Assembly: GCF_037042905.1 (NCBI RefSeq)
Contig: NC_087251.1
Span: 21,206,001 to 21,270,000, forward strand
Length of the DNA stretch: 64,000 nt
Direction of reading: 5' to 3'
Source of the DNA: Lytechinus pictus
Taxonomy: Eukaryota
Shown: piece by piece, positions 3,037-64,000 of the stretch
Layout of the letters: the number at the start of each line of letters is the position of its first letter
Position numbering within the stretch: the stretch's first letter is position 1
Position numbers and translations under genes: made by a program
The notes under the pieces: model-generated
Database searches by the model: none
Told to the model about the DNA's origin: nothing
What the model saw: the letters and a program-made list of their open reading frames with translations, nothing else

Positions 3037-3334
3037 AGGGTACTCCAGGCTGAAGATAATATGATTTAAACAGATTAAAGGAAAAACAAACAAACCAAAC
3101 ACTGAAAATTTAATAAAAATCGGACAAGGAATAACAAAGTTAAGGCATTTTAAAGATTTGCATAATTCTAGTGAACAGTTCTAGGCATGTCTTCATGAAT
3201 ATTCAATGAGCAAACTTAAATTCATTAACTTCTCTATTTGATAGAAGATTTTGATGAAATTTTCATCATTTTGCTCAGTGAATTTTACTCTATTTATTAT
3301 TAAGATATAAATATTTTCAGCCCGGAGTCCACCT
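3037..3334. mobile_element. Kolobok-like non-autonomous element (TTAA TSD)
   Basis: TTAA|AGGGTACTCCAGGCTGAA...TTCAGCCCGGAGTCCACCT|TTAA. Confidence 0.7.
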
Positions 3335-3794: not shown

Positions 3795-4882
3795 TTGATG
3801 GATGAGAGAGGGGCATGCAGAAAGGAGAAATAGACAGGAGTTAGCCAAGAAGAGACAGAAGAAAATTCTAGCTAGCTCTAAGGAACATGATTGTCACGCT
3901 CTCTAAATGAGTAGTGGCAAATAATATTATTACAACTCCTTGTGTTTTACTAATATAATGTAATTTTCAGTCAACAGAAATGGAGATTGAAATCAATTTG
4001 CATTGGAGAAAATTAAACACATCATTTGCTGTTGAGAGTGTTGGGGTGGCCCTCCCTTTTATATTCAATCTTATGACAAATCACCAATACATAACAAACT
4101 GTGGGAATGGGAATGATCTGATGATAGGCAGCAAATGTATATCTGACATACATGCACATTTGTTTGGAAGTAGAATATTCATACCAAATTAAAAAAAATA
4201 TAGGCATGTTTCGGTCTTGACCAGTGAATACTTTAAGAAAGATCAACTATTCATAGCCATTCTCTTTTTTATTCCTCTCTCCATATGATGGGTTTTTTTT
4301 ACCTGATCTAGAAAATAGTATGGAATAGTCTAAATTTCTAATTACATGAAATTGATGGAGGCAAATGCTGAGAAAGGTGAAGTCTAGATATGACAAGGGT
4401 CATATTTTTTAATGTGGTGTATACCATTCTAAGAACTTATCAGTATTTGCAATCATAATCATAATTACAATCCGCATTTTTTAGAAAATCAATTGCAGTA
4501 ATTTATTTAATTGGTCAACATGATATCTTATTCATTACAACAGTTAAAATCATTCGATAGTGTGCCATGAGCCATTTTTTTGGTCTTAGGTTTCAGAGAT
4601 TCAATTTATTGTTTATGTAATATACACTACTCAAAAAAAGTTAAGGACCACTTTTTAAAACGTACATAAAGATTTTATACAAGGTGTTTTATTTCTGGAA
4701 ATACCTCAGTACAACTGTCCTAAATGTCCTTAAACACGCTGTAATCAATTTCACGCATGGGTGGTTTCAGTTGTTGCACAATGTCTCTCGCATCACTGCA
4801 CATCCTGAAAAGTGGGCCCCGAGGGGTATCAGCTACCGACATGAAGTGGTAAAAACGAATGTCTGAGTGTCTTTCAGGCAGT

Positions 4883-5911
4883 TCAGTAACGAGTGTGACC
4901 ACCTCCTGCAGCAATAACGGCTTCACAGCGCTGTCTCATGGAGCTGATGAGGCGATTGATGTCTCTGACGTCCAGTGCATCCCATGCAGCCTCCAGAGCC
5001 ACACCCAGCTGCAGCAGTCCAAGTGGATGGGCTTCGAGCTGCTCGAGACTCCTCCCCATCATGTCCCAGACGTGCTCTATCGGGTTTAAGTCCGGGGACC
5101 TCGCTGGCCACTCCATACGCTCAATCCCCTGGCCCTCAAGGAACTCGGTCACCACCCTAGCTCGGTGGGCACGGGCATTGTCATCCATGAAAATGATGTT
5201 TTGTCCCACATTTTCTGCAAATGGCACCACTATAGGTTCAAGGACCTCATCCCTGTACCTCACTCCTGTCATTGCTCCCCCTGGGACCACGTAGAGACGA
5301 GTACGGTTGGCGTAGGTGATGCCTCCCCACACCATGACGCTGCCTCCCCCATAACGGTCATGTTCTGCAATACAGGGGTCTGCAAATCTCTCTCCTGGTC
5401 GCCTCCAGACTCTCGAACGTCCATCATTGTGGTCAAGGGAAAATCTGCTCTCATCTGTGAACAGAACTCTACGCCATTGCTGTCTGGTCCATCTGACATG
5501 CTCCCGGGCCCAGTTGAGACGAATTCTTCTGTGAGCAGGGGTGAGTGGGACACACTGAGCTGGCCGTCTGGCATGCATATTGGCTCTGTGAAGTCGGTTA
5601 CGGATTGTTTGAGTGGAAACAATCACTCCAGTTGCTGCAGCGAAGTCATTGTTGAGGCGGCGTGCACTGTGAAAGCGGTTGCGGAGGCTGAGATTCGTCA
5701 AGTAGCGATCATCTCTAGGGGTTGTCGAAACTGGTCGGCCACTGCGGGGTCTCTCGGAGTATAGCCCTGTCTCTCGGTGTCTTTGATTTGCTCTGCTAAT
5801 GACACTGTGTGACACGCCCATCATTCTGGCTACTCTTCGCTGACTGAGGCCAGCTTCCAGCATCCCTAGGGCTCTGGCTACATCTGTTTCACTTAGGTGG
5901 TGTCTTGGCAT
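4883..5911 (-). CDS. Tc1-family DD34E transposase, intact copy 1 (342 aa from ATG 5911)
   Basis: N-terminal HTH, GRP motif, FTDESRF, VMVWGGI, MDDNARAH and SPDLNPIEHVW, with 34 residues between the second D and E. The ORF track start at 5926 is a TTG. Confidence 0.96.
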   Translation of the reverse strand: MPRHHLSETDVARALGMLEAGLSQRRVARMMGVSHSVISRANQRHRETGLYSERPRSGRPVSTTPRDDRYLTNLSLRNRFHSARRLNNDFAAATGVIVSTQTIRNRLHRANMHARRPAQCVPLTPAHRRIRLNWAREHVRWTRQQWRRVLFTDESRFSLDHNDGRSRVWRRPGERFADPCIAEHDRYGGGSVMVWGGITYANRTRLYVVPGGAMTGVRYRDEVLEPIVVPFAENVGQNIIFMDDNARAHRARVVTEFLEGQGIERMEWPARSPDLNPIEHVWDMMGRSLEQLEAHPLGLLQLGVALEAAWDALDVRDINRLISSMRQRCEAVIAAGGGHTRY

Positions 5912-6307
5912 TGCTGTTGTAGGCAAGTTGTTGATTGTACAGACTAAAGACGGAAAATGCTTTGGAAGACACTTGTCTTATGGCCCACTGCAATGATGCC
6001 AGAGACATCATGAAAGAACTGCATGTGTGAAATTGATGTCATTGTGTTTGATGGCATTCTGGACAGCTGTATCTTGGCATTGCTATTGTCAGCAAGTTGT
6101 TGATTGTAGAGACTAAAGACAGAAAATGCTTTGGAAGCCACTTTTGTACGGGCACATTGCAATGATGCAAGAGACATGAAAGAACTGCATGTGTGAAATT
6201 GATTTCATTGTGTTTGATGGCATCCTGGACAGCTGTATCTTGGCATTGCTGTTGTCAGCAATTTGTTGATTGTAGAGACTAAAGACAGAAAATGCATTTG
6301 AATCCAC
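5880..6307 (-). repeat. Same 428-bp loop in inverted orientation
   Basis: Reverse complement of 8004-8431, with CTTGGCATTGCT at 5904, 6073 and 6239. Confidence 0.9.
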
Positions 6308-6725
6308 AGCCAGAGCCCTAGGGATGCTGGAAGCTGGCCTCAGTCAGCGAAGAGTAGCCAGAATGATGGGCGTGTCACACAGTGTCATTAGCAGAGCAAA
6401 TCAAAGACACCGAGAGACAGGGCTATACTCCGAGAGACCCCGCAGTGGCCGACCAGTTTCGACAACCCCTAGAGATGATCGCTACTTGACGAATCTCAGC
6501 CTCCGCAACCGCTTTCACAGTGCACGCCGCCTCAACAATGACTTCGCTGCAGCAACTGGAGTGATTGTTTCCACTCAAACAATCCGTAACCGACTTCACA
6601 GAGCCAATATGCATGCCAGACGGCCAGCTCAGTGTGTCCCACTCACCCCTGCTCACAGAAGAATTCGTCTCAACTGGGCCCGGGAGCATGTCAGATGGAC
6701 CAGACAGCAATGGCGTAGAGTTCTG
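6308..6725 (+). pseudogene. Truncated transposase arm (DNA-binding portion only, broken just before FTDE)
   Basis: Matches 8432-8849. The ORF 6324-6731 (135 aa) runs across the junction into inverted flank sequence and stops. Confidence 0.9.
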
Positions 6726-7006
6726 ACATAAGTTATTTGAACATATTACACTACTCAAAAAAAGTTAAGGACCACTTTTTAAAACGTACATAAAGATTTT
6801 ATACAAGGTGTTTTATTTCTGGAAATACCTCAGTACAACTGTCCTAAATGTCCTTAAACACGCTGTAATCAATTTCACGCATGGGTGGTTTCAGTTGTTG
6901 CACAATGTCTCTCGCATCACTGCACATCCTGAAAAGTGGGCCCCGAGGGGTATCAGCTACCGACATGAAGTGGTAAAAACGAATGTCTGAGTGTCTTTCA
7001 GGCAGT

Positions 7007-7987
7007 TCAGTAACGAGTGTGACCACCTCCTGCAGCAATAACGGCTTCACAGCGCTGTCTCATGGAGCTGATGAGGCGATTGATGTCTCTGACGTCCAGT
7101 GCATCCCATGCAGCCTCCAGAGCCACACCCAGCTGCTGCAGTCCAAGTGGATGGGCTTCGAGCTGCTCGAGACTCCTCCCCATCATGTCACAGACGTGCT
7201 CTATCGGGTTTAAGTCCGGGGACCTCGCTGGCCACTCCATACGCTCAATCCCCTGGCCCTCAAGGAACTCGGTCACCACCCTAGCTCGGTGGGCACGGGC
7301 ATTGTCATCCATGAAAATGATGTTTTGTCCCACATTTTCTGCAAATGGCACCACTATAGGTTCAAGGACCTCATCCCTGTACCTCACTCCTGTCATTGCT
7401 CCCCCTGGGACCACGTAGAGACGAGTACGGTTGGCGTAGGTGATGCCTCCCCACACCATGACGCTGCCTCCCCCATAACGGTCATGTTCTGCAATACAGG
7501 GGTCTGCAAATCTCTCTCCTGGTCGCCTCCAGACTCTCGAACGTCCATCATTGTGGTCAAGGGAAAATCTGCTCTCATCTGTGAACAGAACTCTACGCCA
7601 TTGCTGTCTGGTCCATCTGACATGCTCCCGGGCCCAGTTGAGACGAATTCTTCTGTGAGCAGGGGTGAGTGGGACACACTGAGCTGGCCGTCTGGCATGC
7701 ATATTGGCTCTGTGAAGTCGGTTACGGATTGTTTGAGTGGAAACAATCACTCCAGTTGCTGCAGCGAAGTCATTGTTGAGGCGGCGTGCACTGTGAAAGC
7801 GGTTGCGGAGGCTGAGATTCGTCAAGTAGCGATCATCTCTAGGGGTTGTCGAAACTGGTCGGCCACTGCGGGGTCTCTCGGAGTATAGCCCTGTCTCTCG
7901 GTGTCTTTGATTTGCTCTGCTAATGACACTGTGTGACACGCCCATCATTCTGGCTACTCTTCGCTGACTGAGGCCAGCTTCCAGCAT
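7007..7987 (-). CDS. Tc1 DD34E transposase copy 2, lacking its natural start (326 aa from an internal Met)
   Basis: The arm ends at 8003, so the first codons (MPRHHLSETD) are missing. Carries the HVC and LQQL variants. Confidence 0.85.
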   Translation of the reverse strand: MLEAGLSQRRVARMMGVSHSVISRANQRHRETGLYSERPRSGRPVSTTPRDDRYLTNLSLRNRFHSARRLNNDFAAATGVIVSTQTIRNRLHRANMHARRPAQCVPLTPAHRRIRLNWAREHVRWTRQQWRRVLFTDESRFSLDHNDGRSRVWRRPGERFADPCIAEHDRYGGGSVMVWGGITYANRTRLYVVPGGAMTGVRYRDEVLEPIVVPFAENVGQNIIFMDDNARAHRARVVTEFLEGQGIERMEWPARSPDLNPIEHVCDMMGRSLEQLEAHPLGLQQLGVALEAAWDALDVRDINRLISSMRQRCEAVIAAGGGHTRY

Positions 7988-8003
7988 CCCTAGGGCTCTG
8001 GCT

Positions 8004-8431
8004 GTGGATTCAAATGCATTTTCTGTCTTTAGTCTCTACAATCAACAAATTGCTGACAACAGCAATGCCAAGATACAGCTGTCCAGGATGCCATCAAACA
8101 CAATGAAATCAATTTCACACATGCAGTTCTTTCATGTCTCTTGCATCATTGCAATGTGCCCGTACAAAAGTGGCTTCCAAAGCATTTTCTGTCTTTAGTC
8201 TCTACAATCAACAACTTGCTGACAATAGCAATGCCAAGATACAGCTGTCCAGAATGCCATCAAACACAATGACATCAATTTCACACATGCAGTTCTTTCA
8301 TGATGTCTCTGGCATCATTGCAGTGGGCCATAAGACAAGTGTCTTCCAAAGCATTTTCCGTCTTTAGTCTGTACAATCAACAACTTGCCTACAACAGCAA
8401 TGCCAAGACACCACCTAAGTGAAACAGATGT
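8004..8431 (+). repeat. 428-bp loop: about 2.4 tandem copies of a 166-169 bp unit plus the transposase start
   Basis: AGCAATGCCAAGA recurs with its ATG at 8065, 8231 and 8400. Confidence 0.9.
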
Positions 8432-9428
8432 AGCCAGAGCCCTAGGGATGCTGGAAGCTGGCCTCAGTCAGCGAAGAGTAGCCAGAATGATGGGCGTGTC
8501 ACACAGTGTCATTAGCAGAGCAAATCAAAGACACCGAGAGACAGGGCTATACTCCGAGAGACCCCGCAGTGGCCGACCAGTTTCGACAACCCCTAGAGAT
8601 GATCGCTACTTGACGAATCTCAGCCTCCGCAACCGCTTTCACAGTGCACGCCGCCTCAACAATGACTTCGCTGCAGCAACTGGAGTGATTGTTTCCACTC
8701 AAACAATCCGTAACCGACTTCACAGAGCCAATATGCATGCCAGACGGCCAGCTCAGTGTGTCCCACTCACCCCTGCTCACAGAAGAATTCGTCTCAACTG
8801 GGCCCGGGAGCATGTCAGATGGACCAGACAGCAATGGCGTAGAGTTCTGTTCACAGATGAGAGCAGATTTTCCCTTGACCACAATGATGGACGTTCGAGA
8901 GTCTGGAGGCGACCAGGAGAGAGATTTGCAGACCCCTGTATTGCAGAACATGACCGTTATGGGGGAGGCAGCGTCATGGTGTGGGGAGGCATCACCTACG
9001 CCAACCGTACTCGTCTCTACGTGGTCCCAGGGGGAGCAATGACAGGAGTGAGGTACAGGGATGAGGTCCTTGAACCTATAGTGGTGCCATTTGCAGAAAA
9101 TGTGGGACAAAACATCATTTTCATGGATGACAATGCCCGTGCCCACCGAGCTAGGGTGGTGACCGAGTTCCTTGAGGGCCAGGGGATTGAGCGTATGGAG
9201 TGGCCAGCGAGGTCCCCGGACTTAAACCCGATAGAGCACGTCTGTGACATGATGGGGAGGAGTCTCGAGCAGCTCGAAGCCCATCCACTTGGACTGCAGC
9301 AGCTGGGTGTGGCTCTGGAGGCTGCATGGGATGCACTGGACGTCAGAGACATCAATCGCCTCATCAGCTCCATGAGACAGCGCTGTGAAGCCGTTATTGC
9401 TGCAGGAGGTGGTCACACTCGTTACTGA
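8400..9428 (+). CDS. Tc1 DD34E transposase copy 3, full length (342 aa), W-to-C in NPIEHVW
   Basis: Open frame from ATG 8400 with the same motifs as copy 1. Reads HVCDMM instead of HVWDMM. Confidence 0.95.
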   Translation: MPRHHLSETDVARALGMLEAGLSQRRVARMMGVSHSVISRANQRHRETGLYSERPRSGRPVSTTPRDDRYLTNLSLRNRFHSARRLNNDFAAATGVIVSTQTIRNRLHRANMHARRPAQCVPLTPAHRRIRLNWAREHVRWTRQQWRRVLFTDESRFSLDHNDGRSRVWRRPGERFADPCIAEHDRYGGGSVMVWGGITYANRTRLYVVPGGAMTGVRYRDEVLEPIVVPFAENVGQNIIFMDDNARAHRARVVTEFLEGQGIERMEWPARSPDLNPIEHVCDMMGRSLEQLEAHPLGLQQLGVALEAAWDALDVRDINRLISSMRQRCEAVIAAGGGHTRY

Positions 9429-12400
9429 ACTGCCTGAAAGACACTCAGACATTCGTTTTTACCACTTCATGTCGGTAGCTGATACCCCTCGGGGCCCACT
9501 TTTCAGGATGTGCAGTGATGCGAGAGACATTGTGCAACAACTGAAACCACCCATGCGTGAAATTGATTACAGCGTGTTTAAGGACATTTAGGACAGTTGT
9601 ACTGAGGTATTTCCAGAAATAAAACACCTTGTATAAAATCTTTATGTACGTTTTAAAAAGTGGTCCTTAACTTTTTTTGAGTAGTGTAATATGTTCAAAT
9701 AACTTATGTCAATATGATATTGAAGGAAACATGCATCACACAAATTAATTTAATGATAATGAAATGGAGAGTTTATCACCACCAAAAAAATGTTACAAAT
9801 CTATACTATTCTGTGCAGCTATTGTAAACTTGTTACTTTTTTATTAATATTGCTCATATAAGTGAATAATTGGAATATTGTGTTCTGACATAACAGTTTA
9901 ATAAAATATCTTATCTTGTCTTATCTTGATACTAATGCATAAGACACTAAAAGGCAAATCAGAAGTGGGTTGCTTACTGAACTTAAATAGCCCCCGCTTC
10001 TTCAAATGATCCTTGTGCAACAGGTATAATGACAATTCTTTCAAATGGCGCAGCAATGTAGATTATGGGAAACCACTCTCAAGTTAGTTTTCAGACTGAT
10101 ATGCATAGGCCTTTGGGACAATGCATCCCCCTTCCTTCCCTAGCCTTTGTCCCTCTGTCACTCTCCCCAAGGATGGAATCTTTAGAGCTATCCAATGTAC
10201 ATCATGTACCTAAACAATAAATACGATCAAATAAATTGATTTCTATTCATCATTTATGTCCATTTTGGTGCATTCAAGACAAGTTTGAAATGGAAAAATT
10301 CGATATTTTCAAGATTAAGTCTGTGACGTCAAGAAAACTTCAATGTCAAGAAATCTGAAATGAACAAAAGAGAATGGTTGAAAACTGATCTGCTTGAATT
10401 CATCCTGCAGCGCATGGAAGGATTCACATGGCAGTTCTGAAGTATGTACTGTACAGTCAACTCCCAGAGGACATTAGGAGGGAGTGCAACAGCATGGTAT
10501 CTAATTGCACCCAAGGCTGAACGCAAGAGACATGAGTCGCATTCAATGTGTCTACTTTACAAGAAAACAGGAGTTCAAGAACTCACATCACTTGGACATT
10601 CATGTATGCCTGCTACACACAGTAACTATACACCCTGACATTTTCACAGTGTTTCGTTTTATGAATAACAGGAGTTCACCATCATGAGTTCACAACAATT
10701 TTCAATTCAGTGTGTGGCTACAGCTACTACGCATGAAAGCTAAATGTTACATGAAAGCCATTTTTATTTATGACAGAACATAGAACCCCTGCAACTTTGA
10801 TATTGGCTTATTTTAATAGCAGATTACATAAATGTGTAAAAATAAAGTTGTGATGATGACACTTAATACTGGTTAAAGCATAAACTGGAGTATATAATTC
10901 ATCTTCACCCATGCAGTAGGAGCCATACAAAATACATCCATTTAAAATAAAGCTATACAATTTAATCTTAATCACTCTATTCTACTTCTCTCTCCCACTC
11001 TCTCTCTTTCTCATGTTGTATGATAGATCAGTGAGTTTTTTTCACAAGGAAAACTAAAATCAATGGAGTAATCAAAGTGTATTTGCCTGATTTTTGTTGT
11101 ACATATATCTTAGAGATATTATGATTCATTTGTAACATCATCAACTAAAATAACAACCAGACCAAATATCGAAAAAAGTACTATTTTGATATTGTAAAAA
11201 GAAAGCACAATATCAATGATTTATTAAGCTTGAGTCAAGACATGACAAAAAATGTTGAAGAAAGGAACAGGCATAAAGTGCATAAGAAATAAACTGACAG
11301 AATCAGAAAAAGAGACAGACAGAAAGAGAGATAGATAACAGATGGACAGTAAGGATATACAGATAGATAGATGCAGAGCAAAGATAGATAAAGAGACAGT
11401 GAAACAGAGACAATACAAACAGGAGAGACAAGATGAAATAAAGGAAAGAGAGGGGGATAGGACAAGACATAATTCATGAAGGCATTTAAAACCAAGGACA
11501 AAGCTTATACTGTACCTTCGTAAGGATACACAAATTATATTAGACTGGAAAAAATGATTTAAAAAAGAGATGACCTCTAAAAATCCAAGAGGGGATGGGT
11601 TGACAACAAACCCTATAATCAAAAGCAATAGAAAGAGGAGATAAGAAATGGACAGTGAATGATGGAGATATAGAAGAGCGAGCTAGGATATGGGAGAAGA
11701 TTGAATGTTACAAGTGTCTATAACAGCCAGAGGGTGATCTGCCAACCAGGAGCATCAAATAACAAAGCTTTCAAACTGACAAAGTGGAAAAAAACGCACC
11801 AGGGGCTGACGTCTCATTAATCGTCACATGGTCTCATCAACGGGAGAGTCTCAACTCCCATGACAGCCACATGGTGCGTCTGCCATGGCTAACTCTCAGG
11901 AAGGGTGCTGGTACATTATCCATGTGATCAGTCATGTGACACGATGCCGCTAAGGCCTTGAAATTCTCTCAATAAACATGAATAGCGCAGATTTAAAATT
12001 GAATAAAAAACCCTTTGTTCATGCTTAAAGAGACTTCACATTTGCTTTCCATAGACAAAGCTTCTTTTTGATCCACTTTCGGTATAATCAATTCTATTTG
12101 TTCTTTATAACATTTTAAATAATAAATTTGATGAAATTGACATCAAGACAATAGAAAATAAGAAGACAATTAGATGCATGATTTTATGATCAAATAAAAA
12201 AAAAATTGATAAGTAAATTTGATTTCCTCATCTAACTGTACAAGTAGTGAACAATAGCAATACACATTGAATGAATACACAGGTAGGCAGTGTTATTCCA
12301 CTATTGTTTACAATATTAGGAGGTCAAATTTAGTTTACAGACCTTTGTGTTTAATAGAAATTCAAAAGAGGGGAAAATCCCCACAGTATTTGATGGAGGG

Positions 12401-15111: not shown

Positions 15112-18071
15112 CAGAGCATTACTGCCATACCGGAATAGTGAGTTAGGCAGTTAAGACACAGCTTCAGACATTGCTTATCCTCCAGACATTGTATTATATC
15201 CAACAGAATATTGTGAGCTACCTTTTTATTATGTAAATCCTCCAAGATGAGTTTTCCTGAAAATCCTATTTTACCTCCTTTATTGAAATTGACTTTTCCA
15301 ACAAAACATATAAGTTCATATATACATGTAGGACCCATATTTGTCAGATATGACACTCTGTATTCAGATCTGGTTGATAGATTTTCCATGATGCAATGTT
15401 TTCTTTTCTTCAATTCTGCTTTAACTTAGATGTTTTCACTGTATTTTTAACGATTCATTTTTTAACCTGAAAATAGTTTTTCCCAGAATTCTTTGAATTA
15501 TGTATTCACCCTTGCCCCACACTGCAGAAAAAGGGGACTTTAAATTTGACCTTCCTATTCTCCTGTACAAAGGACATGAAACCAAAGTGAAAGCTCATAT
15601 CAATTTCTAACTATCCCTAAGGATGAGCTTTCAATACTTTATCTTGAGAATAAATTGATTTGACTGAAGAACTATAAAACATTTATAAAAGACGATTTTG
15701 CACATTCAATTGAAGAGTAAGAGCCTGTTTTACATTCATAACAGAAAGTTGATAAGGCTCTAACTTAATCACATCATCAAATGCATTGAAAGAGATGGCT
15801 TGTGGTGGCAGTGTCCATTCTCGTTTTTCTCTTTCATAATTAATGCTATCCTAAAAATGCTCATTATTTTTCATTCAATGATTACATTTTCACTAATATG
15901 CTTGTTTGATTTATGTCTGTTTGTTAAAATTAACTCAACATCAGGATGAAGTACTCCCTTTAAATTTATCGATCTTGAATTTGAGAGAGCCACCCCTCAT
16001 TATGACATTTTTTTTTTTTAAGCAATACAGCACAAAAATGAGTCATGGCACTCATTAGGTATATCAGATGGATCTGCTCATTATCACTTTATGATCTGCA
16101 GTAAATGTTAGCTCTAAATCTCATCTCTGTAAATGGCGAAATTATGGATAAATGCTGAATGCATTCTCTCAAGCCTGTAAATATCCAAGATAATGAGTAA
16201 ACGTTGAATGCCAACAATAAAAAAACCTGTATCAATCATCTAAAATGGAATTGATTAAAAGCTGAGATATGAGTGTAATGAAATGAAAATGTGAAATTAT
16301 TAATTTGTATTGAATAATTAGGGTACTCCATAAAAAGGACAAGGAAGATGATACTGTTAATTGCGATGTCAACAACTGTTAGATCCCTAGACACATCAAT
16401 TGCATTGCTTGATACAACGATGCAATATCATACTCATCCATGAGAGAATTTAATATCTACGAGACTATTATCAGTAGTCAGTACGATGAACTCAATCTTG
16501 ACAGGAATTAAATAGAAAATCTGGGCGATTGTTTCAAATGGAGCACATCTCATTTCGCGCTTCATTTTACCTCTTCACCACATTCTGTTCAAGAGTCATT
16601 ATATATCACGGTTTTAAATGACAGGTAATGCTTTCTCACATGAGAGTAAATGTCTGGAAAGATGTTGAAAGAGTGATTGAGAAAAGAGGCAGTCATTGCT
16701 ACGACACGAAGACCCAAAGACGGCTCGGCAGAATGAGGTGCCCTTGTACTTGCCACCTGACGTCAAATCTCACAAATTACTTGGCTGCAAGCGGAAATTG
16801 TCCTGTTGAAAGACACCTCGCGTAATTCAACGCTTGGCTCCCTTGATGAGACCATGTTAAGACAATCGAACACAACCAAGTGCTACCAAGATGTAGTCTG
16901 TTCTTACAGACTCCATTCTGATCAATCTGTTGATTTTCTGCTGACCACTAATCCCAAGAAACATGCACCAGTGTTTTCTCACTAGCCAAATTCATGCCAC
17001 CTAATATGTAACTTACATTTTTCAAGAGAACTTTGGAAAAAAATACCGAAATATTAAAGTGAAAAAGCATACCGCTAATTATAAAAAATCATTTAAAAAA
17101 GAGACCTGATGAAAATTCATATTTTTTCTTGGCCACTAAGCTTCGTGTCTGCAATAAAAAGCAGAATTTTCAGCAGTCAGCATGAATCTGCGGTCTCTTC
17201 GTATCATGAAGACAGATCTTTCCAAGTATTAGAAAAGACAGCTCTCTTCTTTCTTTGTTCTGTGAGTGTCAAATGTATGTCAAGTTGAAAGCAGGAAGTC
17301 TAAGTCATTCTGCCCTAGAGCTTTTTGTATAATGTTACATGTTACATAAACATAGAAATGCATGAAGTTTCGAAGGGGAGTTTCACTTTTATGTAATTCA
17401 ATCCAGCCTTACAATTTACAGAAATAATTTTGCCTATACCACTGAAGATTTCATTTTGTAACTAAAAATATAATGACAGAAGTAAAATGAAATACTAGTA
17501 TAGAATATTCTATTAAATCAGTACTTAAAAGGGGGAGGCTGACAAATTTACATGTACATCTACATTGGGACAGAAGATATCATACATTATCATCTATATA
17601 CAGTGTTTTAGCGATGCATTAAAAACACATATTTTGGTCTTCATCAATTTCACGTGCAGTATCAGAGCGTTTCCCTAAAAAGGACCCAAATCTGATGAAT
17701 ATCCCATAGGCTCCTGTACAAAATTTGCCACTGAATATGAGACCATATTTAACAGTCTAGTGCGCATGTGCAAAAGATACAACGCATACAACAATGAAAC
17801 TAATGTGATGCGCAGCATAGAGCACAACTACGCTCGATGATGTCATAATGACTACATGCAAGTCCCATGTCAATGACCAAATTAAATCCTATGAAATGAT
17901 GATGCCATAATGTGATAAGTGATATGACTTGTTCAATCAAATTTTCCCTCTTTTTTGGGGGGGTGGGGTGGGATGGAAGATAATTATATTGGAAGGCTTT
18001 ATTTCATGGAATACCAGAAATATTCCAGTCCTTAGGGCCAATATAATATAATTATTTTGAAAACTAATAAA

Positions 18072-18661
18072 AGGAATGGTCCAGGCTGAAAATATTTATA
18101 TCTAAATAGAGTAAAATTCACAGAGCAAAATGCTGAAAATTTCATCAACATTGGATAACAAATAACAAAGTTATTGAATGTTAAAATTTATCAATATTTT
18201 GTGAAAATAGTTATATGCACATCGTCATGAATATTCATTAGGTGGACTGATGTCACATCCCCACTTTCCTTTTTCTTATGTTATTTCATGAAATAATAAA
18301 TGTTTCATTTTTCATATATGTGTAAATGATGTGTCTCCGTTATGATGAAATAAGTTGCGGCAATAAATAACTAATGCAATTAATCAGTTGTTAATCCAAT
18401 TGTTTTAGTTCTTGGTAGAAAAATTTTGAATAAACCTAATTTCATATACATGTAATAAAATACAAAAGAACAAGTGGGGATATGACATCATCAGCCCACC
18501 TAATGAATATTCATGAAGACATGCCTAGAACTGTTTCACCGGAATAATGCAAATCTTTAAAATTCAATAACTTTGTTATTTATCAGAATTTTATCAAATT
18601 TTAGGCATTTTGCTTTGTGAATTTTATTGAGATAAAAACATCTCCAGCCTGGACCATCCCT
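18072..18661. mobile_element. Kolobok-like MITE with long imperfect TIRs
   Basis: AGGAATGGTCCAGGCTG...CAGCCTGGACCATCCCT|TTAA. Related to 3037-3334. Confidence 0.75.
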
Positions 18662-18864
18662 TTAAGGCTTAACGACAATATGCTGCCAGAGAGAGTGGCC
18701 TCTCCCCTACCTATCCCTTTTTTAACATAAAATGTATGCATGTATACGCTCATACTACAGATATATGTTTTACTTCTATTTTGTGAAAAGAAAACAAAAT
18801 ATATTAGAGATTTCTAGCATTGTTTTGTGAATGGTATTAATGCAAAATTATCTCTGTACCATAG

Positions 18865-21418: not shown

Positions 21419-22248
21419 ACAAGGCAAAAGCGATTTTGTGTCTCGCCCACTTATGAAAATAACCAGAAATATTGTGACTTGCGAACGTACGCAACAGAAT
21501 TGTATCGAAACTTCATTGTGAAATGAATGGGATGGAATAACACTTGTCATAAGAGCCTTGCACGTAAACTTTACCGTTGACCTGAAAATGACCTTTGACC
21601 TTACCATGTGACCTCCGACTGCAGCATAACATGCAGGTCCCCCAAGTCCATCTACCATCCAAGTTTGGTTGAAAAGCGACTTACGGTTGCGGAGTTAGGT
21701 GTCATAAGAGAGTCTTGTATGTAAACTTTAAAGTTGACCTGAAAATGACCTTTGACATTACCATGTGACCTCCGACTGCAGCATAACATGCACGTCCCCC
21801 AAGTCCATCTACCATCCAAGTTTGGTTGAAAAGTGACTTACGGTTGCGGACTTAGGTGTCAAGAGAGTCTTGCATGTAAACTTTAACATTGACCTGAAAA
21901 TGACCTTTGACCTTACCATGTGACCTCCGACTGCAGCATAACATGCAGGTCCCCCAAGTCCATCTACCATCCAAGTTTGGTTGAAAAGTGACTTACGGTT
22001 GCGGAGTTAGGTGTCATAAGAGTCTTGCATGTAAACGTTGACCTGAAAATGACCTTTGACCTTACCATGTGACCTCTGACTGCAGCATAACATGCAGGTC
22101 CCCCAAGTCCATCTACCATCCAAGTTTGGTTGAAAAGCGACTTACGGTTGTGGAGTTATGTGTCATAAGGTTTGTGACGGACGGACGGCGGACGGATGAC
22201 ATTTGGATCCCTAAGTCTCGCCTTCACCTCTGGTGGGCGAGACAAAAA
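21419..22248 (-). mobile_element. Helentron-associated (HINE/DINE-1-like) element with 4 tandem units of about 155 bp
   Basis: SubTIR TGTCTCGCCCAC/GTGGGCGAGACA, terminal hairpin GTCTCGCC...GGCGAGAC, a (GACG)n microsatellite and A-rich flanks. Units at about 21576, 21733, 21888 and 22037. Confidence 0.8.
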
Positions 22249-42521: not shown

Positions 42522-43640
42522 CAGCAGGCCACAACTACTTCACTCTTATTCTGGACCCTTGATGAAATATCCAATATTACTGTACTTCTGTTCATACATG
42601 AATACATAAGATGCACTAGAAATAGTGTGAAAATTGCATTCAGAGATAAGATATCAATCAAATCCTGGAAGCAATTTGGTCTAAGGATTATGTACAATTT
42701 ATATGATTGTTTTGAAAAGCCTCAGGAACTAGTTCCTCTATACATTTGGATTAAGCAAGCACATATGGTGAAGAAATTGGGTTTGTAGAACACACAAAAC
42801 ATTCCCTGGGTAATTCAAATACAGAATGTATCATGTCTTAGCTTGCCCATATATTGGCCTCTTCAAGAAAATGTTCCGTATATTTTCAAATATGAAAATA
42901 CACCATTTCTAACGTCAGATTAAGTTATTACAAAACAAGTAAAAGATCAGGTCATGTGAAAAGTTGTGCATAACTTAACAGCTTCATGACACAATCCCCC
43001 CTCCCCCCAAAAAAATAATAACAATGAATGAATCAACAAATAAATAAACAAATCAATTAACTAATTAATTAATCAATAAATTAATAATAATACTATGAAT
43101 AAAATTATTAAAAAATAAAAAATAAGTGTTTCCATAAAAAAATGGTTGGAGCCTTGGAGGACCCATTAGTATATTCTATTTCCTCTGAACTAAATACACG
43201 TATCTCTGTTGGCATATAGGTACAGTCTACTCCATGTGATGACCAGACAAGCCATTTAATACCTTTCCTGTTGTCACATTCAAGATCTAGATATGTCTGT
43301 TATACAGGTGTCATAATAGTCACGTGACTAACTTGATGCTTCTCAATAACCAAAACAGAGGGTATAAGATATCACCATGTACTTTTCAGCAGTATCTGTA
43401 ACTAATAAAGGTTCAAAGATAACTCTAAGTTCACTTCATATGGAATCAAATTTAGGACGAAACTAAATTTTCATCAATAGCACCAAAACCTCAGTGTGAT
43501 ATATTGCAATTGACAAAACAATCAGGAATGAACTGTTTCTGTGTATTAGTAACATGATGCTCTGAACACTACATGGAACTATACACACAAATATTCTCCT
43601 TGAACATTTCAACTGCTTTTTTGGGGAGTCTTGTTTTTAA

Positions 43641-44244
43641 AGGACAAGTCCACCCCAACAAAAAGTTGTTTTGAATAAAAAGAGAAAAATCCAACAAGCA
43701 CAACGCTGAAAATTTCATCAAAATCGGATGTAAAATAAGAAAGTTATGACATTTGTAGATTTCGCTTAATTTCACTAAATTGTTATATGCACATCCTGGT
43801 CTGTATGCAAATGAGGGAACTGATGATGTCATCCACTCACTATTTCTTTTGTATTTTATTGAATGAAATATGAATTATTCTAATTTTCCCCTTTTTGTCA
43901 TGTGAAAGAAAGTTTTGTTCCTCTCTGAACATGTGGAATTACCATTGTTTTAACATTTTATGATTCAATCAAGTTGATCCCTATTGTCAAATTTGTAAAA
44001 ATTGAAATATTGTGTAATTCAAACAATAAAAAACAATAGAAACAGTGAGTGAGGGACATCATCGACTCTCTCATTTGCATGTTGCTGACTTGTTCATATA
44101 ACTATTTTGTGAAAAATAAGCAAAATTTTAAAATGCCATAACTTTCTTATTTTACATCCGATTTTGATGAAATTTTCAGCGTTATGCTTGTTGGATTTTT
44201 CTCTATTGTTTCAAATCAACATTTTTCTGGGGTGGACTTGACCT
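43641..44244. mobile_element. Kolobok-like MITE with long TIRs
   Basis: TTAA|AGGACAAGTCCACCCC...GGGGTGGACTTGACCT|TTAA. A second copy lies at 62893-63481. Confidence 0.85.
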
Positions 44245-45388
44245 TTAATGTTAAGGCATTTTTGTCCACAATATTCTTTCAAAATTATGTGAAAAGAACT
44301 CGGAAATTCACAACGATCGTTATTAGCTTTCAAATACGGGAACACATTACAAAAGTATATATGATAATTTATTTTTTGTAGTCTTCTCACACAATGCATG
44401 GACCTTCTTATAGCCTGAGCCAAGTCAAAATTGCATTAAAAAAATAACTTTAAAAAAAGGAGAGGAAATTACCTAGCTTAAATATATATACATTTATACA
44501 AATTAAAGAAACCAAAGAAAGGGAACAAAGTGTAATGGGCAGTAACAATAGAAAAAAAAGTTATGAGAAAAAAATTGAAACCAGGAAAATGGCAATGGAA
44601 ATAGAACTCTTCATTGTTTTAGACTAAATAACGAGTCAATTAAAGCTAAAGACGACAAAACTGGATGAGTTGAATGAGCGAGCAAAGGGAGTTCATTGAA
44701 ATTTCAATTCCAACAAAACAAGATGAGATTATCACATAATCTATTCAAGACAGAGGTAAAAGATAGCTTCAAATGGTGACCAAATAGCAGTATCGATCTC
44801 AATGGTGAACTTCTTTGCCCTGTAACAAGAACTGAGCAGCTCCAAGGTTCCGACATTACATGTCTGTTTTTTTGTGAGACTTGAAACAGAACAAGTCTTC
44901 TCACGGCAACAGGATGCAGAAAATGTTAGATGGGGAGGGGAATAACCTCAGTATGTAAGAGATAGATCTGAAGATCAATGAACATAAGGTGAATGGTTGT
45001 ACTCTTATTTATCTCCAGCTCATTGCTAGCCAGCACAGCTCAATGATTCCACTCGTACGAACCAACAACTTCTTTCTGCATCACTGTCTACTTTGATTGC
45101 TTCAAGAAGAAAAAAAAGAAGGAATACCATGAGCAGAGTACTACGAGGATGTTCACTCATTCCAAAGTATCTGTCAAGGACCAAAACATAAAGTTTTCTT
45201 CTCTGTTTTTCACTTCCTCTCAAAAGGGTTCTGTTTTTACACTTACACAAAAAATCCTTTACATAAAGTGATCAAACTTAATCCCCCCATTCTCTCTCTC
45301 TCTCTCTGCATCTATCTCTGTATCAGTCACTTGCTAACTCTGTGTTATTAATTGATTATTTTTTCTCTCATACATCTTTTTTTATTAT

Positions 45389-46887
45389 TAGGTGATCTGT
45401 CAGTTGACAGATCACCTCTTGTGTTTCTACGAATTTTCTTTTTTATTTATTTTTATTTCTTTTTCTTTTTCCACCCTTTTCTTGTTCCACCAAAATAAAA
45501 AAAAGTGCTCGATCAATTTTCATCAAAATATTGTCAATTATGCACAGTTATCATGCGATGTGTACGAAACAAGTTCAACGTCAAATGGTCATCGTGACGT
45601 CATCTACGCGCCATTTTGTAAAATCACATTATCAACAATATCTTCATCATCAATCATCAAAAATGAACAATATTAACATAAAAATAACTTCAGATCATGG
45701 GTCAACTGTCCATGTCATCAAACGTCATGAACACGTCACGACGCGCATGTACGCGCGTGTCAAAATTTTAAAATGCTCAAAATCACTTTTTGATCAAAGT
45801 AGAGTACGAAATAGGTCATTTGAAGCATTTCAAGAATTTGCGCGCTCACACGTTTTCGCGCGCGTTCACGCGCGTAACGTCGGTATGCAATGTGAAATCG
45901 CCGTTTCTTTTACGTCAATGCATTTATTATGAAATTCTGATTAATTTGATACCTTGATCAACCTTCTACGACCAGTAGTAAAGGAATTAGCTTCAATCAA
46001 ACTTTGAATCATGCGCGCACGCGCGTTCACAATAGGCCAAATATGTGCAAAAACATGCCTTTACAAAATTCAATATAACTCTTCAGATAGTCCGTTGACC
46101 CCTAAATTTTCTTTTATATTCGGATGAAGTATAAATTGTAGATGTGATTTCATGTCACATTCGACCCTACATTTTATCATGACGTCATCAAAATGGCGTC
46201 GGAACTAAAATTTTCCATTTTTGTTTCATGACGTTTTAATAATTTTACAAATATGACTATTACTCCGTAATTGTTGGTCATTTTTCGCTCAGATTTCGAC
46301 ATATTGTAGCTGAGCTTATACGCTTACTAAATATTTTCTAAAATTTTCATTTATATTAATTATTAATCCTCAAAATTTAGAATTTATAGAGGCATATCAC
46401 AATGGCAATTTTTACTGTCATAAATCAATTCAAGATAATATTCATTCTTTGAACGACGAGAGTTTGAGAAGTTTTGTGGTCTAATGGATAGCACACCTGC
46501 CTTGCAACGCGAGGATCCTTGGTTCGAAACTCACTTGACAATGTTTTTTTTTTTGCTCATGTATTTGTGTGTAACCTCTATTAATACTGATTTTTCTCAA
46601 AACTTGATTCTACATTCTTGGATTCCAGCAACATTATTTTCACTATTTCGTGTAGTCACTTTCGAAATCGCATTTGGCATCTCTAATAAAACAAGATCTT
46701 TTACACAACCTAATTTGTTGTCTTCAGCTGTATTTAATATGTTCTTCCGTTGATAAAAGTTTGTTTATTATGATGATGATCATATTGAACTGCATTGACA
46801 TGGTTGTAATAATCGAAAATTAGATCGTGATCATGAGAATGACAGACAGATCACCTAATTCGTCCACAAGACGAATTAAAATTCTAG
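45389..46887 (+). mobile_element. Non-autonomous Helitron/Helentron-type element, unit 1
   Basis: 5' hairpin AGGTGATCTGTC-AGTT-GACAGATCACCT. The 3' end has subTIR GACAGATCACCTA, hairpin AATTCGTC..GACGAATT and CTAG|T. Confidence 0.75.
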
Positions 46888-48534
46888 TTTATTTATTCTT
46901 TTTATTTATTTTTCTTTTTCCACCCTTTTCTTGTTCCACCAAAATCAGAAAAACTGTTCTATCAATTTTCATCAAATTATTATCAATTATACACAGTTAT
47001 AATGCGATGTGTACGAAACAAGTTCAACGTCAAATGGTCATCGTGACGTCATCTACGCGCCATTTTGTAAAATCACATTATCAACAATATCTTCATCATC
47101 AATCATCAAAAATGAACAATATTAACATGAAATTAACTTCAGATCATGGGTCAACTGTCCATGTGATCAAACGTCATTAACACGTCACGACGCGCATGTA
47201 CGCGCGCGTCAAAATTTTAAAATGCTCAAAATCACTTTTTGATCAAAGTAGAGTACGAATCAGGTCATTTGAAGCATTTCAAGAATTTGCGCGCTCACGC
47301 GTTTTAGCGCGCGTTCACGCGCGTAACGTCGTTACGCAATGTAAAATCGCCGTTTCTTTTACATCAATGCATTTATTATTAAATTCTGATTAATTTGATA
47401 CCTTGATCAACCTTCTACGACTAGTAGTAAAGGAATAAGCTTCTATCAAATTTTTAATAACGCGCGCACGCGCGCGTTCACAATAGGCCGAATATGTGGA
47501 AAAACATGCCTTTACAAAATTTAATATAACTCTTCGGATAGTCCGTTGACCCTCAAATATTCTTTTATATTCCGATAGAGTATGAATTGTAGATGTGATT
47601 TCATGTCACATTTGACCCTAAATTTTATCATGACGTCATCAAAATGGCGTCGGAACTAAAATTTTCCATTTTTGTTTTATGACGTTTTAATAATTTTGCA
47701 AATATGACTATAACTCCGTAAATATTGGTCAATTTTCGCCCAGTTTTTTAATATGTTGTAGCTGAATACATACTCTTTCTAACTTAATGGCTATATTAAC
47801 ATTTAAAGGAACGGATCATCCTGAAAAATGGCAAGTTATAGAGGCATGTCATTTTCGCTCATTTTGTGTGCAATCTCTATGGGAAATGGCTTTTTCTCAA
47901 AACTGGATTTTACATTCCTCTATTTCGCGAGCCATATCTCCATTTCTAATCGTCGGTTTTCTCTTAGCTTGGAGTATAATGTAGCTGAGATTGTAAGCTA
48001 TCGCAATCTGGTCTTATTTTTCTGATAAAAAGCCGGGATCATGCCCGTATTTTTCTTGAAAAATTGGATTTGAGATCCCCTCAATTTGCTTATGTGTAAA
48101 GTCGATGGGAAATAGTGCTTATGTGTATTAGTCTATGGGAAATAGTGTAGCTCAGTTGATAAGGCACCAGACTTGCGTCCTTAGGGTCGAGGGTTCGAGC
48201 CCAGGGGTGAATATGAGAATTTTTTTTTCTTTTTTGTTTATTTTCAACATTTCACAAATGGTCCTTTATGACCATTACAAGGTATATATTGCACAATAAA
48301 ATAGTTTTAAAACCCTTTTATTATAACTTGTACATATACCATGTGTAACACTTATTTCACAAAACTTTTCATTTCCCTCTTTTCAAGGGTATTCAACATG
48401 TTCTCTTCGTAATAAAAGTTCAGTTTTCAATATGATCATCGTATTGATCTCAATAAACATGGTGATTGTATTCGTGATCATGAAAATCAGAGACAGATCA
48501 CCTAATTCGTCCTCATGACGAATTAAAGTTCTAG
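46888..48534 (+). mobile_element. Non-autonomous Helitron/Helentron-type element, unit 2 (head-to-tail with unit 1)
   Basis: About 870 bp is homologous to the 5' part of unit 1, followed by a divergent middle and the same 3' subTIR-hairpin-CTAG end. Confidence 0.75.
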
Positions 48535-54484: not shown

Positions 54485-55676
54485 ACAAGTGGAACGCCTC
54501 TGGCAGTCTCGCCTGCATTACGCAATTTAATATAGCAGCAGTGCTAACTTTGAAAACTACTATAAAATAATCATTAACAAAAACATCATTCATATAATGA
54601 CATAATACCACGTTCATTGACCATAAATGACATTTGAACAGAGACTTAAGACTGTCAACTACACCCATGTCCACATTTCATTCACTCTATCCATAAACTT
54701 TCAAAGTTATGATGGCACTTCAACAATTACCCCAACATGGCCTAAGTTTATTGACCTTAACTGACCTTTGACTTGGTTTTGTGACCTGAAACTCACAGGG
54801 GATGTTCAGTGATGCTTGATTACTCTTATGTCCAAGTTTTATGAACTAGATCCATAAACTTTCAGAGTTAGGATGGTAATTTAACATATACCCCCAACAC
54901 GGCCAAAGTTCATTGACCTTAAATGACCATTGACCATGGTCATCAGGTCATGTGACCTGAAACTCGCACAGGATATATTCAGTGGTACTTGATTAACCTA
55001 ATGTCTAAGTTTCATGAACTAAATCCATAAATTTTCAAAGTTATGATGGTAATTCAACAAATACCCCCAACTTGGCCAAAGTTCAATGACCCTAAATGAC
55101 CTTTGACCTTGGTCATGTGACCTGAAACTCAGGCAGGATGTTCACTAATACTTGATTAACCTTATGTCCAAGTTTCATGGACTAGATCCATAAATTTTCA
55201 AAGTTATGATAGTAATTCAACAAATACCCCCAACTTGACCAAAGTTCATTGACCCTAAATGACCTTTGACCTTGGTCACATGACCTGAAACTCGAGCAGG
55301 ATGTTTACTAATACTTGATTAACCTTATGCCCAAGTTTCATGAACTAGGTCCATATACTTTCTAAGTTATGATGTCATTTCAAAAACTTAACCTTCGGTT
55401 AAGATTTTGAAAATAATTTTCCCAACATGGTCTAAGTTCATTGACCCTAAATGACCTTTGACCTTGGTCATGTGACCTGAAACTTAAGCAGGATGTTCAG
55501 TAATACTTAATTAACCTTATGTCCAAGTTTCATGAACTAGGTCCATATACTTTCTAAGTTATGATGTCATTTCAAAAACTTAACCTCAGGTTAAGATTTG
55601 ATGTTGACGCCGCCGCCGTCGCCGTCGGAAAAGCGGCGCCTATAGTCTCGCTCTGCTATGCAGGCGAGACAAAAAA
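54485..55676 (-). mobile_element. HINE-like element with about 6 tandem units of roughly 135-190 bp
   Basis: SubTIR GTCTCGCCTGCAT/ATGCAGGCGAGAC, a terminal hairpin, a (GCC)n tract and the repeated core TTCATTGACCCTAAATGACCTTTGACCTTGGTCATGTGACCTGAAAC. Confidence 0.8.
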
Positions 55677-62892: not shown

Positions 62893-63481
62893 AAGTCCAC
62901 CCCAACAAAAAGTTGATTTGAATAAAAAGAGAAAAATTCAACAAGCATAACACTGAAAATTTCATCAAAATCGGATGTAAAATAAGAAAATAATGACATT
63001 TTAAAGTTTTGCTTAATTTCACAAAACAGTTATATGCACATTCTGGTGGGTATGCAAATGAGGTGACTGATGACGTCATCCACTTACTATTTCTTTGGTA
63101 TTTTATAATATGAAATATGGAATATTCAATTTTTCTCCTCATTGTCAAGTGAAAGAACAATTAATTCCTCCCTGAACATGTGGAATGAGCATTGTTTAAT
63201 ACTATATGATCAGTCAAGTTGTTTCTTATTGTCAAATCTATATAAAAAAAAAGAAATATAGTATAATTCAAACAATGAAAAACAAAAGAAATAGTGAGTG
63301 AGGGACATCATCGACTGTCTCGTTTGAGTTGTGCATACAATGTTTTGTGAAAAATAAGCAAAACTTTAAAATGTCATAACTTTCTTATTTTACATCCGAT
63401 TTTGATGACATTTTCAGCGTTTTGCTAGTTTGATTTTTCTCTTTTTATTCAAATCAACATTTTCTGGGGTGGATTTGACCT
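62893..63481. mobile_element. Kolobok-like MITE, same family as 43641-44244
   Basis: Collinear with 43641-44244 and ends GGGGTGGATTTGACCT|TTAA. The first few bases are missing. Confidence 0.8.
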
Positions 63482-64000
63482 TTAAATCATATTTATACAG
63501 TCATGATTAAAGGACATGGGACAGGTAACAAGATTACATTGTTTTACAAATTTTAATGTGAATTTATTTTAAAAGTAATAAATTTACATAAAATGTCATT
63601 CTTTTTGCTTCATCTCTTTGTTCGTTTTTTTTTTATTGAATCGGGAGGGGGTGGGGTGTGGTTAAAATATGATTTGCCCCTCAGAACACACTTGTTTCCC
63701 TCCTAAAAATAGTAACTAATATTTGTAGAAAATTGTATGATTGTTTTTTTTATGAACTCTGAATATTTTCCCATAAATTGTCAAATTGGGAAAATAATTG
63801 ATTGAGATGAAGATTTGAAGTAGGAAGGGCGAGAAATTAAAAGAAATTTCATATAAAAGTGAGAAAGATCCAGAGATGCAAAGATTACACTGTATAGGGA
63901 ATAATGAGAGAGAGAGGGGGGGGGGCGAGGTGAAGTAGAACGGGAAAAAAAAAGTACTATAAATGTGAAGGAGTCATTAACAGAGATAGATGTATTGAGA

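Follow-up and report, generated by a model that had tools for sequence, protein, structure and literature searches.

Architecture of the locus

Three arms of transposon sequence stand in inverted arrangement on Lytechinus pictus contig NC_087251.1, raising the question whether the locus is an in-situ inverted triplication of the DUP-TRP/INV-DUP type, as an earlier note had proposed, and which template switches would have produced it. We analysed the 64,000-nucleotide stretch that contains it (the window). Self-BLAST and base-by-base comparison verified the inverted arm and loop layout, the repeats being far above chance (BLAST E = 0.0). The order claimed previously, armL(-), loop(-), 418 bp of armR(+), 25 bp of inverted flank, arm(-), loop(+), arm(+), agreed exactly with the base comparison, as did the identity of 6724-6748 with the reverse complement of 9687-9711. 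The features are as follows.

4623-4624: TA at the left outer end (the Tc1 target dinucleotide), presumably from a single-site duplication
4625-5879, minus strand: arm 1, the right-hand 1255 bp of Tc1, from transposase codon 11 to the stop, then the right terminal repeat
4883-5911, minus strand: complete 342-aa Tc1 transposase ORF, start codon inside the loop (D153, D244, E279)
5880-6307, minus strand: first loop copy, corresponding to the 5' region native to the element, with 2.4 copies of a 166-bp unit and the first 10 codons
6308-6725, plus strand: first 418 bp of the right arm, attached to the loop at the fold-back junction J1
6720-6731, plus strand: junction J2, a 12-mer spanning the join, same as 9882-9893; nominal overlap TG at 6724-6725
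6724-6748, minus strand: the opening 25 bp of the right flank (9687-9711) in inverted form, TA included, by base comparison
6749-8003, minus strand: arm 2, identical to arm 3, with the derived C282 allele and without codons 1-10
8004-8431, plus strand: second loop copy, matching the first at every base
8400-9428, plus strand: complete 342-aa transposase ORF, C replacing the family's W282 beside E279
8432-9686, plus strand: arm 3; the homology switch must fall in its first 813 bp (8432-9244)
9687-9711, plus strand: TA and right flank, the source of the copy at 6724-6748; its segment 9704-9711 forms half of an 8-bp inverted repeat
9882-9893, plus strand: probable junction template, composed of segments 9882-9887 and 9886-9893, outside the 4625-9711 span first described

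Arms 2 and 3 together with the 25-bp flank are 100% identical across 1280 bp, the two loops are identical across 428 bp, and no arm differs from the 418-bp piece over its length. J1 at the 6307/6308 side is the same junction as 8003/8004, and 6749-9686 is on its own a perfect palindrome with TA at each side. The 64-kb window holds no other duplication of at least 95% identity and at least 60 bp, and hence no sign of widespread false duplication. When 239 flanking frames of at least 55 aa (of 366 of at least 48 aa) were scanned for host genes, none rose above the Pfam cut-off in a scan that would miss short exons; three weak matches fell below it and were not kept.

The arms and loop belong to a young Tc1 transposon

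Each arm corresponds to the right-hand 1255 bp of a young DD34E Tc1 transposon, whose normal 5' region makes up the loop. Both transposase ORFs (2/2) exceeded the cut-off for PF01498 (E = 6.9e-19) and PF13358 (E = 2e-17 / 3.3e-19), giving the paired HTH and DDE domains. The second D (D244) and E279 are separated by 34 residues, hence the DD34E spacing, and we take D153, D244 and E279, by motif, to be the catalytic residues. The terminal inverted repeats are bounded by TA at 4623-4624 and 9687-9688, and both ends are right ends. The natural left end has been lost: at 8003/8004 (J1) the inverted arm stands in its place, and loose ends at 9492 in 3 of the 4 runs compared run on into the loop start and so reveal a left terminal repeat that is absent from the window. 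The precursor would thus have been a 2938-bp Tc1 derivative with two right ends between TA dinucleotides. The Tc1 identity supplies the inverted repeats and likely the source of the break.

Nearly identical copies of this Tc1 occur under several host labels. The back-joint of the 166-bp loop unit was found in 4/4 sequencing runs compared, all from other hosts, and a local origin of the loop tandem was rejected since the tandem occurs in every one of them. A transposase scan of viral contigs confirmed none, and one of metagenomes returned 14 loci at 28-44% identity, too distant for use. The J1 pattern had 0 matches in JGI metagenomes, which says little about other genomic sites. The best internal direct repeat in the right terminal repeat reached 13/28, and a bacterial promoter scan of the loop, ill-suited to animal DNA, stayed at chance level. 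Among the papers listed in literature searches, none concerned this Tc1 family or a re-duplicated right-right Tc1.

Allele differences point to arm 3 as the source of arm 2

Over its 1255 positions, arm 1 departs from arms 2 and 3 exactly twice, at 9245 and 9298 (arm-3 coordinates), so that arm 1 reads HVW and LLQL where arms 2 and 3 read HVC and LQQL. The earlier note had read both variants as linking arms 2 and 3. HVC is indeed shared and derived: the allele at 9245 is absent from 4/4 runs compared (G at full depth), 11/11 aligned cluster relatives and 6/6 other homologues, and arm 1 has the family-type W282. LQQL, in contrast, was rejected as a shared derived allele, being the family state; the change at codon 300 (L; the family has mostly Q) is private to arm 1. 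In the three-arm base comparison arm 2 was identical to arm 3 and not nearer arm 1. Because the derived allele at 9245 is common to both, these data support the view that arm 2 was copied from arm 3.

Reconstruction from a proposed two-armed precursor

A two-switch path from the 2938-bp precursor rebuilt all 64,000 bases exactly, with return points 0-813 bp into the arm. The homology switch must lie within the first 813 bp of the arms, a stretch over which they do not differ. The proposal that two switches account for every feature therefore stands as far as this exact rebuild by one homology switch and one microhomology junction goes, but there were probably three, the additional one via 9882-9893. 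A three-copy segment arises for 418 of the 814 compatible return points, all below 418 bp, while the others leave an inverted segment in one copy or none, and copy number never exceeds two; beyond those 418 return points the event is an inverted duplication, not a triplication. Three arms are present because the precursor already had two. The DUP-TRP/INV-DUP designation agrees with the proposed homology junction in the inverted repeats and with the non-homologous junction and strand change at J2; its triplication holds only for that subset of return points.

Junction J2 has a probable template in the flank

The TG overlap at 6724-6725, claimed as microhomology, is present but of chance-level length: 14-16% of 4000 random joins per setting show at least 2 nt, and with about 15% of random joins matching it, TG was rejected as evidence of microhomology. 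The 12-mer spanning J2 recurs 171 bp into the flank, at 9882-9893. Matches of 12 nt appeared in 10, 9 and 19 of 4000 random joins within 250, 500 and 1000 bp, respectively, in a test that was post hoc, the recurrence having been noticed first. Holding the flank breakpoint constant, 12 nt within 1 kb was reached by a single one of 1200 arm positions, the observed one; holding the arm breakpoint constant, 12 nt was reached within 250, 1000 and 2500 bp by 9, 18 and 23 of 2023 flank positions, respectively. When the template was sought across the whole window, 67/600 random joins reached 12 nt.

The motif consists of two repeats, of 8 and 6 nt, overlapping by 2: 9882-9887 directly repeats arm positions 8844-8849 (6 nt), and 9886-9893 forms an inverted repeat with 9704-9711 (8 nt). 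A pair of microhomology switches via 9882-9893 probably accounts for J2 better than the bare TG overlap does, pointing to a probable third, hidden switch with 6- and 8-nt microhomologies. DNA folding of 9700-9897 gave -10.4 kcal/mol, with the 8-bp pair absent from the best structure.

A probable two-stage rearrangement and its alternatives

We favour, as the probable reading, a recent in-vivo U-turn between the inverted arms that was closed by templated microhomology joining, in a local rearrangement of two stages. In the earlier stage, whether at this locus or at a donor site, the left end of a young Tc1 would have been replaced by an inverted copy of the element's right-hand 1255 bp, yielding the 2938-bp right-right palindrome between TA dinucleotides. 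In the second stage, at this site and read from the right, a nascent strand would have synthesised 442 bp or more of right-arm sequence before homology carried it over to the left arm of an intact template (the sister chromatid), reversing its direction; it would then have copied the loop, the entire right arm and 25 bp of flank before detaching. The detached strand would have used the 8-nt inverted repeat at 9886-9893 in the flank for priming, been extended by 4 nt, and then paired through 6 nt with the left-hand end at arm position 418, for a net gain of 2124 bp. The existence of the precursor, the order and direction of the switches, the third switch and the sister-chromatid template are inferred. 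The event is tied to this site because 25 bp of unique flank were copied. The trigger may have been gap repair after the element's own excision or, as a second guess, fork collapse at the palindrome. Stage-2 copies show 0 differences, where about 3 would be expected if they shared the age of the arm differences (a rough estimate, with P(0) about 0.05).

The same identity would also be predicted by a library or assembly artefact, in which the true allele is the 2938-bp palindrome and either a chimeric molecule, from strand-displacement amplification or fold-back, or mis-joined haplotypes with opposite loops were assembled. Long near-perfect palindromes favour re-priming, and inverted chimeras are described as the commonest amplification chimeras and as reaching assemblies (10.64898/2026.06.11.730069). 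Among the 24 matches listed in a run search, 20 contained part and 0 contained half or more of the 552 words, the best share being 0.30, and the element alone makes up 0.305 of the distinct 31-mers used; no run with the flanks was among them, so J1 and J2 are without read support. The four runs compared left 9761-10300 uncovered and showed no strand-change joint at either 8432 or 8849; coming from other hosts, they are silent on the junctions. We nevertheless consider an artefact unlikely, since it would take two or more switches within one molecule, or a chimera combined with a loop-flipped allele, J2 looks templated, and no other near-identical duplication lies in the 64 kb. Base accuracy is high, with one difference from run X1 across 1440 bp, and haplotype collapse alone should not be able to create a new junction with inverted flank. 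Moreover, 862 bp separate the breakpoints and the path comes back to the forward strand, unlike fold-back read artefacts, which are defined by a turn within 200 bp (PMC12870357).

If the structure is real, another history could have led to it: two head-to-head Tc1 copies joined by a deletion before stage 2, or a precursor with the opposite loop and two homology switches. Each arm has one private change, none common to the arm 1 and arm 2/3 types, a pattern that two independent insertions would explain no less well than a fold-back shortly after the element arrived. The single target duplication is presumed, and the identical proximal 813 bp would hide any switch. Such histories require an extra step or an extra copy, and we regard them as quite improbable. 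Tc1 cut-and-paste joins the element end itself to TA without carrying inverted flank, and J2 sits 25 bp outside the terminal repeat, not at TA, a position that largely refutes direct transposition as the maker of J2, which was rejected. Despite the palindrome 6749-9686 with TA at both sides, the two full ORFs, and the transposition in vitro of elements with identical ends (PMC4505599), it is thus very improbable that a transposase-catalysed local hop or alternative transposition put a second palindromic copy in or beside the first, as in maize Ac composite insertions.

The two-stage U-turn, if real, would represent a compact, base-resolved invertebrate case of the inverted-repeat U-turn, one that had a transposon for its substrate and a templated second junction. 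It would suggest that rearrangement of palindromic Tc1 derivatives is ongoing, and a survey of their junctions could weigh excision repair against fork collapse as the driver. With no gene detected and no supporting reads, one such locus changes little on its own. As a long shot, excision-gap repair of a palindromic right-right Tc1 might be a repeating engine of in-place inverted amplification of the DUP-TRP/INV-DUP type, the locus being a pre-mutation, second-round product. With three right ends available for use, two whole transposase ORFs and several kilobase-scale hairpins, it could then move in two sizes and serve as a new hairpin silencer of this Tc1.

Comparison with known systems

The proposed mechanism is already known from human duplication disorders, and the present example is small in scale. 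DUP-TRP/INV-DUP rearrangements are described with one junction hidden in inverted repeats by homology and one non-homologous junction with short microhomology, in some cases with a templated insertion; both junction types are alike here and follow the same logic as the published model (PMC11293582). The reported cases span 417 kb to 7.4 Mb, their smallest repeats being 926/917 bp and 318 kb apart (Grochowski et al. 2024, PMC11293582), whereas the locus here is only 5 kb, with 1255-bp arms 428 bp apart. It also differs in having no unique sequence in three copies, its three-copy segment being conditional on the return point, and no detected gene dosage effect. Inverted Alu pairs are named as substrates in the same source, so transposon-derived repeats are not new in this role.

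Goblin is described as a MITE from the Tc1/mariner element Ozma, in which the left part was replaced by the inverted right subterminal region, through a model of excision gap repair, a terminal-repeat switch and microhomology joining (PMC3814204). That model fits stage 1 of the locus and, if repeated, stage 2. Goblin is given as 213 bp, without transposase and with 6-8 nt of microhomology (PMC3814204), whereas the precursor here would be 2938 bp, keeps the full ORF and has about 1 nt of overlap at J1; moreover, the locus would have been rearranged a second time, with read-through into the flank.

Mu killer and the Ac composite insertions of maize resemble the locus in taking both ends from one element end and in carrying a kilobase inverted duplication of transposase sequence (PMC3440606; bioRxiv 2020.01.07.897926). 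Such a long inverted duplication is present here as in a Mu killer-type silencer. The maize elements are reported as silencers with transcripts and siRNAs and have the 5' end duplicated (same sources), while the present locus has the 3' end duplicated and is known from DNA sequence alone.

J2 resembles SD-MMEJ products as described in PMC5728401, in which a seemingly short overlap belongs to a longer repeat nearby: its 12-nt repeat motif, where SD-MMEJ asks for at least 4 bp, combines a primer repeat (8 nt, inverted) with a new 6-nt microhomology. However, the motif lies 171 bp from the join, over the 30-bp limit of SD-MMEJ, and primers of 8-9 nt are described there as disfavoured. J2 is therefore better called an MMBIR-type templated junction than SD-MMEJ.

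Layout of the locus

Self-comparison of the window returned five near-perfect matches, all within 4623-9711, and base-by-base comparison agreed with it, confirming the order of segments described in the earlier note.

Segments of the locus and transposase reading frames
4625-5879, minus: arm 1
5880-6307, minus: loop, first copy
6308-6725, plus: 418 bp of arm
6724-6748, inverted: 25 bp of right flank
6749-8003, minus: arm 2
8004-8431, plus: loop, second copy
8432-9686, plus: arm 3
4883-5911, minus: transposase ORF, 342 aa, PF01498 and PF13358 above cut-off
8400-9428, plus: transposase ORF, 342 aa, PF01498 and PF13358 above cut-off

Base by base, arms 2 and 3 including the flank piece run for 1280 bp without differences, the two loop copies (428 bp) are identical, and arm 1 differs from arms 2 and 3 at 2 of 1255 positions. 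Elsewhere, self-comparison revealed a direct duplication (45429-47851; 1.4-kb spacing, 90%) and two tandem arrays (21545-22169 and 54667-55599; units ~155-165 bp). Older palindromic MITE-like elements (arm identity 74-83%) lie at 1736-2771, 1187-1455, 43637-44248 and 62893-63486, the last two form one family at 85%, of which partial copies also occur near 3044-3326 and 18070-18663. TACATGTA occurs 22 times in 1-64000, against 2.7 expected under a third-order model.

A Tc1 element with two right ends

The arm derives from a DD34E-type Tc1 element (D153, D244, E279) and spans transposase codon 11 to its right terminal repeat; the start codon sits inside the loop, and TA lies outside each end of the locus. 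Contigs of four sequencing runs under four organism codes (4 of the 20 runs with part of the window) were compared over 8243-10300, and differed from the window element once over 1440 bp (X1), twice (X2), once over several pieces (X15) and once plus a 2-nt gap (X18). The loop comprises 2.4 copies of a 166-bp unit whose back-joint was present in all four runs, so the loop is the ordinary 5' region of the Tc1. In three of the four, a loose end at 9492 leads on into the start of the loop and represents the natural left terminal repeat; the window element lacks this repeat and carries the inverted arm in its place, and arm-loop-arm is therefore a Tc1 with two right ends. The loop/inverted-arm junction, J1, occurs twice (6307/6308 and 8003/8004; ~1 nt overlap).

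The 5' region (8004-8431, 5880-6307) is a family feature, its 166-bp unit including the first transposase codons as well as a degenerate stretch of inner terminal repeat (72% to 9511-9601). Within the family (9492-9686), the terminal repeats of the two ends seem alike only over ~74 bp inside and a ~30-bp tip, with 87 unlike bp between (joint 9565-9653 in two of four runs). The Tc1 (8243-9682) is 99.9% identical in contigs of the four runs, which come from four studies under four organism codes and leave the flank uncovered. The 20 runs carry 8 organism codes in addition to metagenome labels and belong to 13 studies, and a relative with 90% identity is assigned to Nymphon striatum. This distribution suggests that the element spread horizontally among marine animals very recently, with codes hiding host kinship and contamination possible.

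Arm 2 was copied from arm 3

The earlier note had arms 2 and 3 sharing two variants (HVC and LQQL, against HVW and LLQL in arm 1). Position 9245 is G at full depth and 9298 invariant in all four runs; W282 occurs in 11/11 cluster relatives and L300 in none (codon 300: 7 Q, 3 R, 1 H). Arms 2 and 3 thus have one derived change in common and arm 1 a private one of its own, so that copying of arm 2 from arm 3 stands, on a single shared derived variant. The C for W282 (9243-9245) in arms 2 and 3, where 17/17 aligned relatives have W, may impair the right-hand ORF.

Rebuilding the locus from a precursor

From a 2938-bp arm-loop-arm precursor, a path leaving at arm position 418, entering the opposite strand in the flank and returning between the arms at point x yields the entire window sequence, whichever value between 0 and 813 x takes. 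With x < 418 an inverted three-copy segment exists; with x > 418 there is one inverted copy of the middle segment, a DUP-NML/INV-DUP pattern, to use a label not encountered in PMC11293582. The proposed triplication holds for 418 of 814 compatible return points, so its odds are about even; the count of three arms is due mainly to the two that the precursor already had, and only 25 bp of unique host DNA were duplicated.

The earlier note's two template switches suffice for this rebuild, but the arm/inverted-flank junction J2 (6724-6725) is suggestive of a hidden third. Its TG overlap is present but shows nothing alone, since 14-16% of random joins have a 2-nt overlap. Twelve bases across J2 (6720-6731) recur exactly at 9882-9893, 171 bp past the flank breakpoint; the 6 nt on the left match the arm breakpoint (8844-8849), and the 8 nt on the right form an inverted repeat with the flank breakpoint (9704-9711). 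Random joins reached 12 nt in 10, 9 and 19 per 4000 within 250, 500 and 1000 bp. When the flank breakpoint was kept constant, only the observed one of 1200 arm positions did so within 1 kb (3/1200 within 2.5 kb); when the arm breakpoint was kept constant instead, 9, 18 and 23 of 2023 flank positions did within 250, 1000 and 2500 bp; in a whole-window template search, 67/600 random joins did. As the match was seen before the test was designed, the evidence for a nearby template (~0.2-1%) is suggestive. The template is too distant for the 30-bp SD-MMEJ criterion as outlined in PMC5728401; Table 1 of PMC11293582 includes a human case with a templated insertion at the second junction.

Probable origin and alternative explanations

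A recent in-vivo U-turn between inverted arms, closed by templated microhomology joining, is the probable origin. A library or assembly artefact is unlikely. In its favour, no listed run has the flanks (best share 0.30, about the element's 0.305 of distinct 31-mers), and identical copies from the later re-duplication are equally compatible with an artefact and with a young event, ~3 differences being expected if their age equalled that of the differences between the arms (P(0) roughly 0.05). Inverted chimeras from amplified libraries do enter assemblies, according to 10.64898/2026.06.11.730069. Against an artefact, other near-identical duplications are absent from the 64 kb, the breakpoints lie 862 bp apart, whereas PMC12870357 defines fold-back reads by a 200-bp limit, and the HiFi sets presented there contain hardly any fold-backs, which would bear on this assembly if it was built from HiFi reads. 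Another real history is more doubtful still: a deletion may have joined two insertions lying head to head, or the precursor may have been loop-flipped and undergone one more switch. Direct transposition is highly improbable: J2 is not at TA and lies 25 bp off the element end, so this join was not made by transposase.

Comparison with known systems

The U-turn, read from the right, keeps the order outlined for DUP-TRP/INV-DUP in PMC11293582 (inverted-repeat homology switch, reverse synthesis, NHEJ or MMBIR closure). The locus works like such an event, as the earlier note proposed, and is a candidate member of the class, whose three-copy segment would be present here or not depending on x. The path also matches the Goblin model as summarized in PMC3814204, in which excision gap repair is followed by a switch between the element's inverted ends and microhomology joining. 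Such a route would account for J1 when the precursor was made; it may then have run again with inverted repeats of 1255 bp, and the reversed strand would have continued 25 bp past the element end.

Since identical-end mariner elements transpose in vitro (as described in PMC4505599), mobility of 6749-9686 or 4625-9686 is conceivable in principle. Pfam gave no match above cut-off for any of 239 flanking frames, and read-through from a host gene is therefore not known. Literature listings, which include few subscription papers, held no report of this Tc1 family or of a re-duplicated right-right Tc1. The parts and mechanism are of known kinds. As portrayed in PMC3440606, Mu killer has both ends derived from one end and a kilobase inverted duplication, a plan that this locus resembles, as it does that of the maize Ac composite insertions sketched in bioRxiv 2020.01.07.897926.
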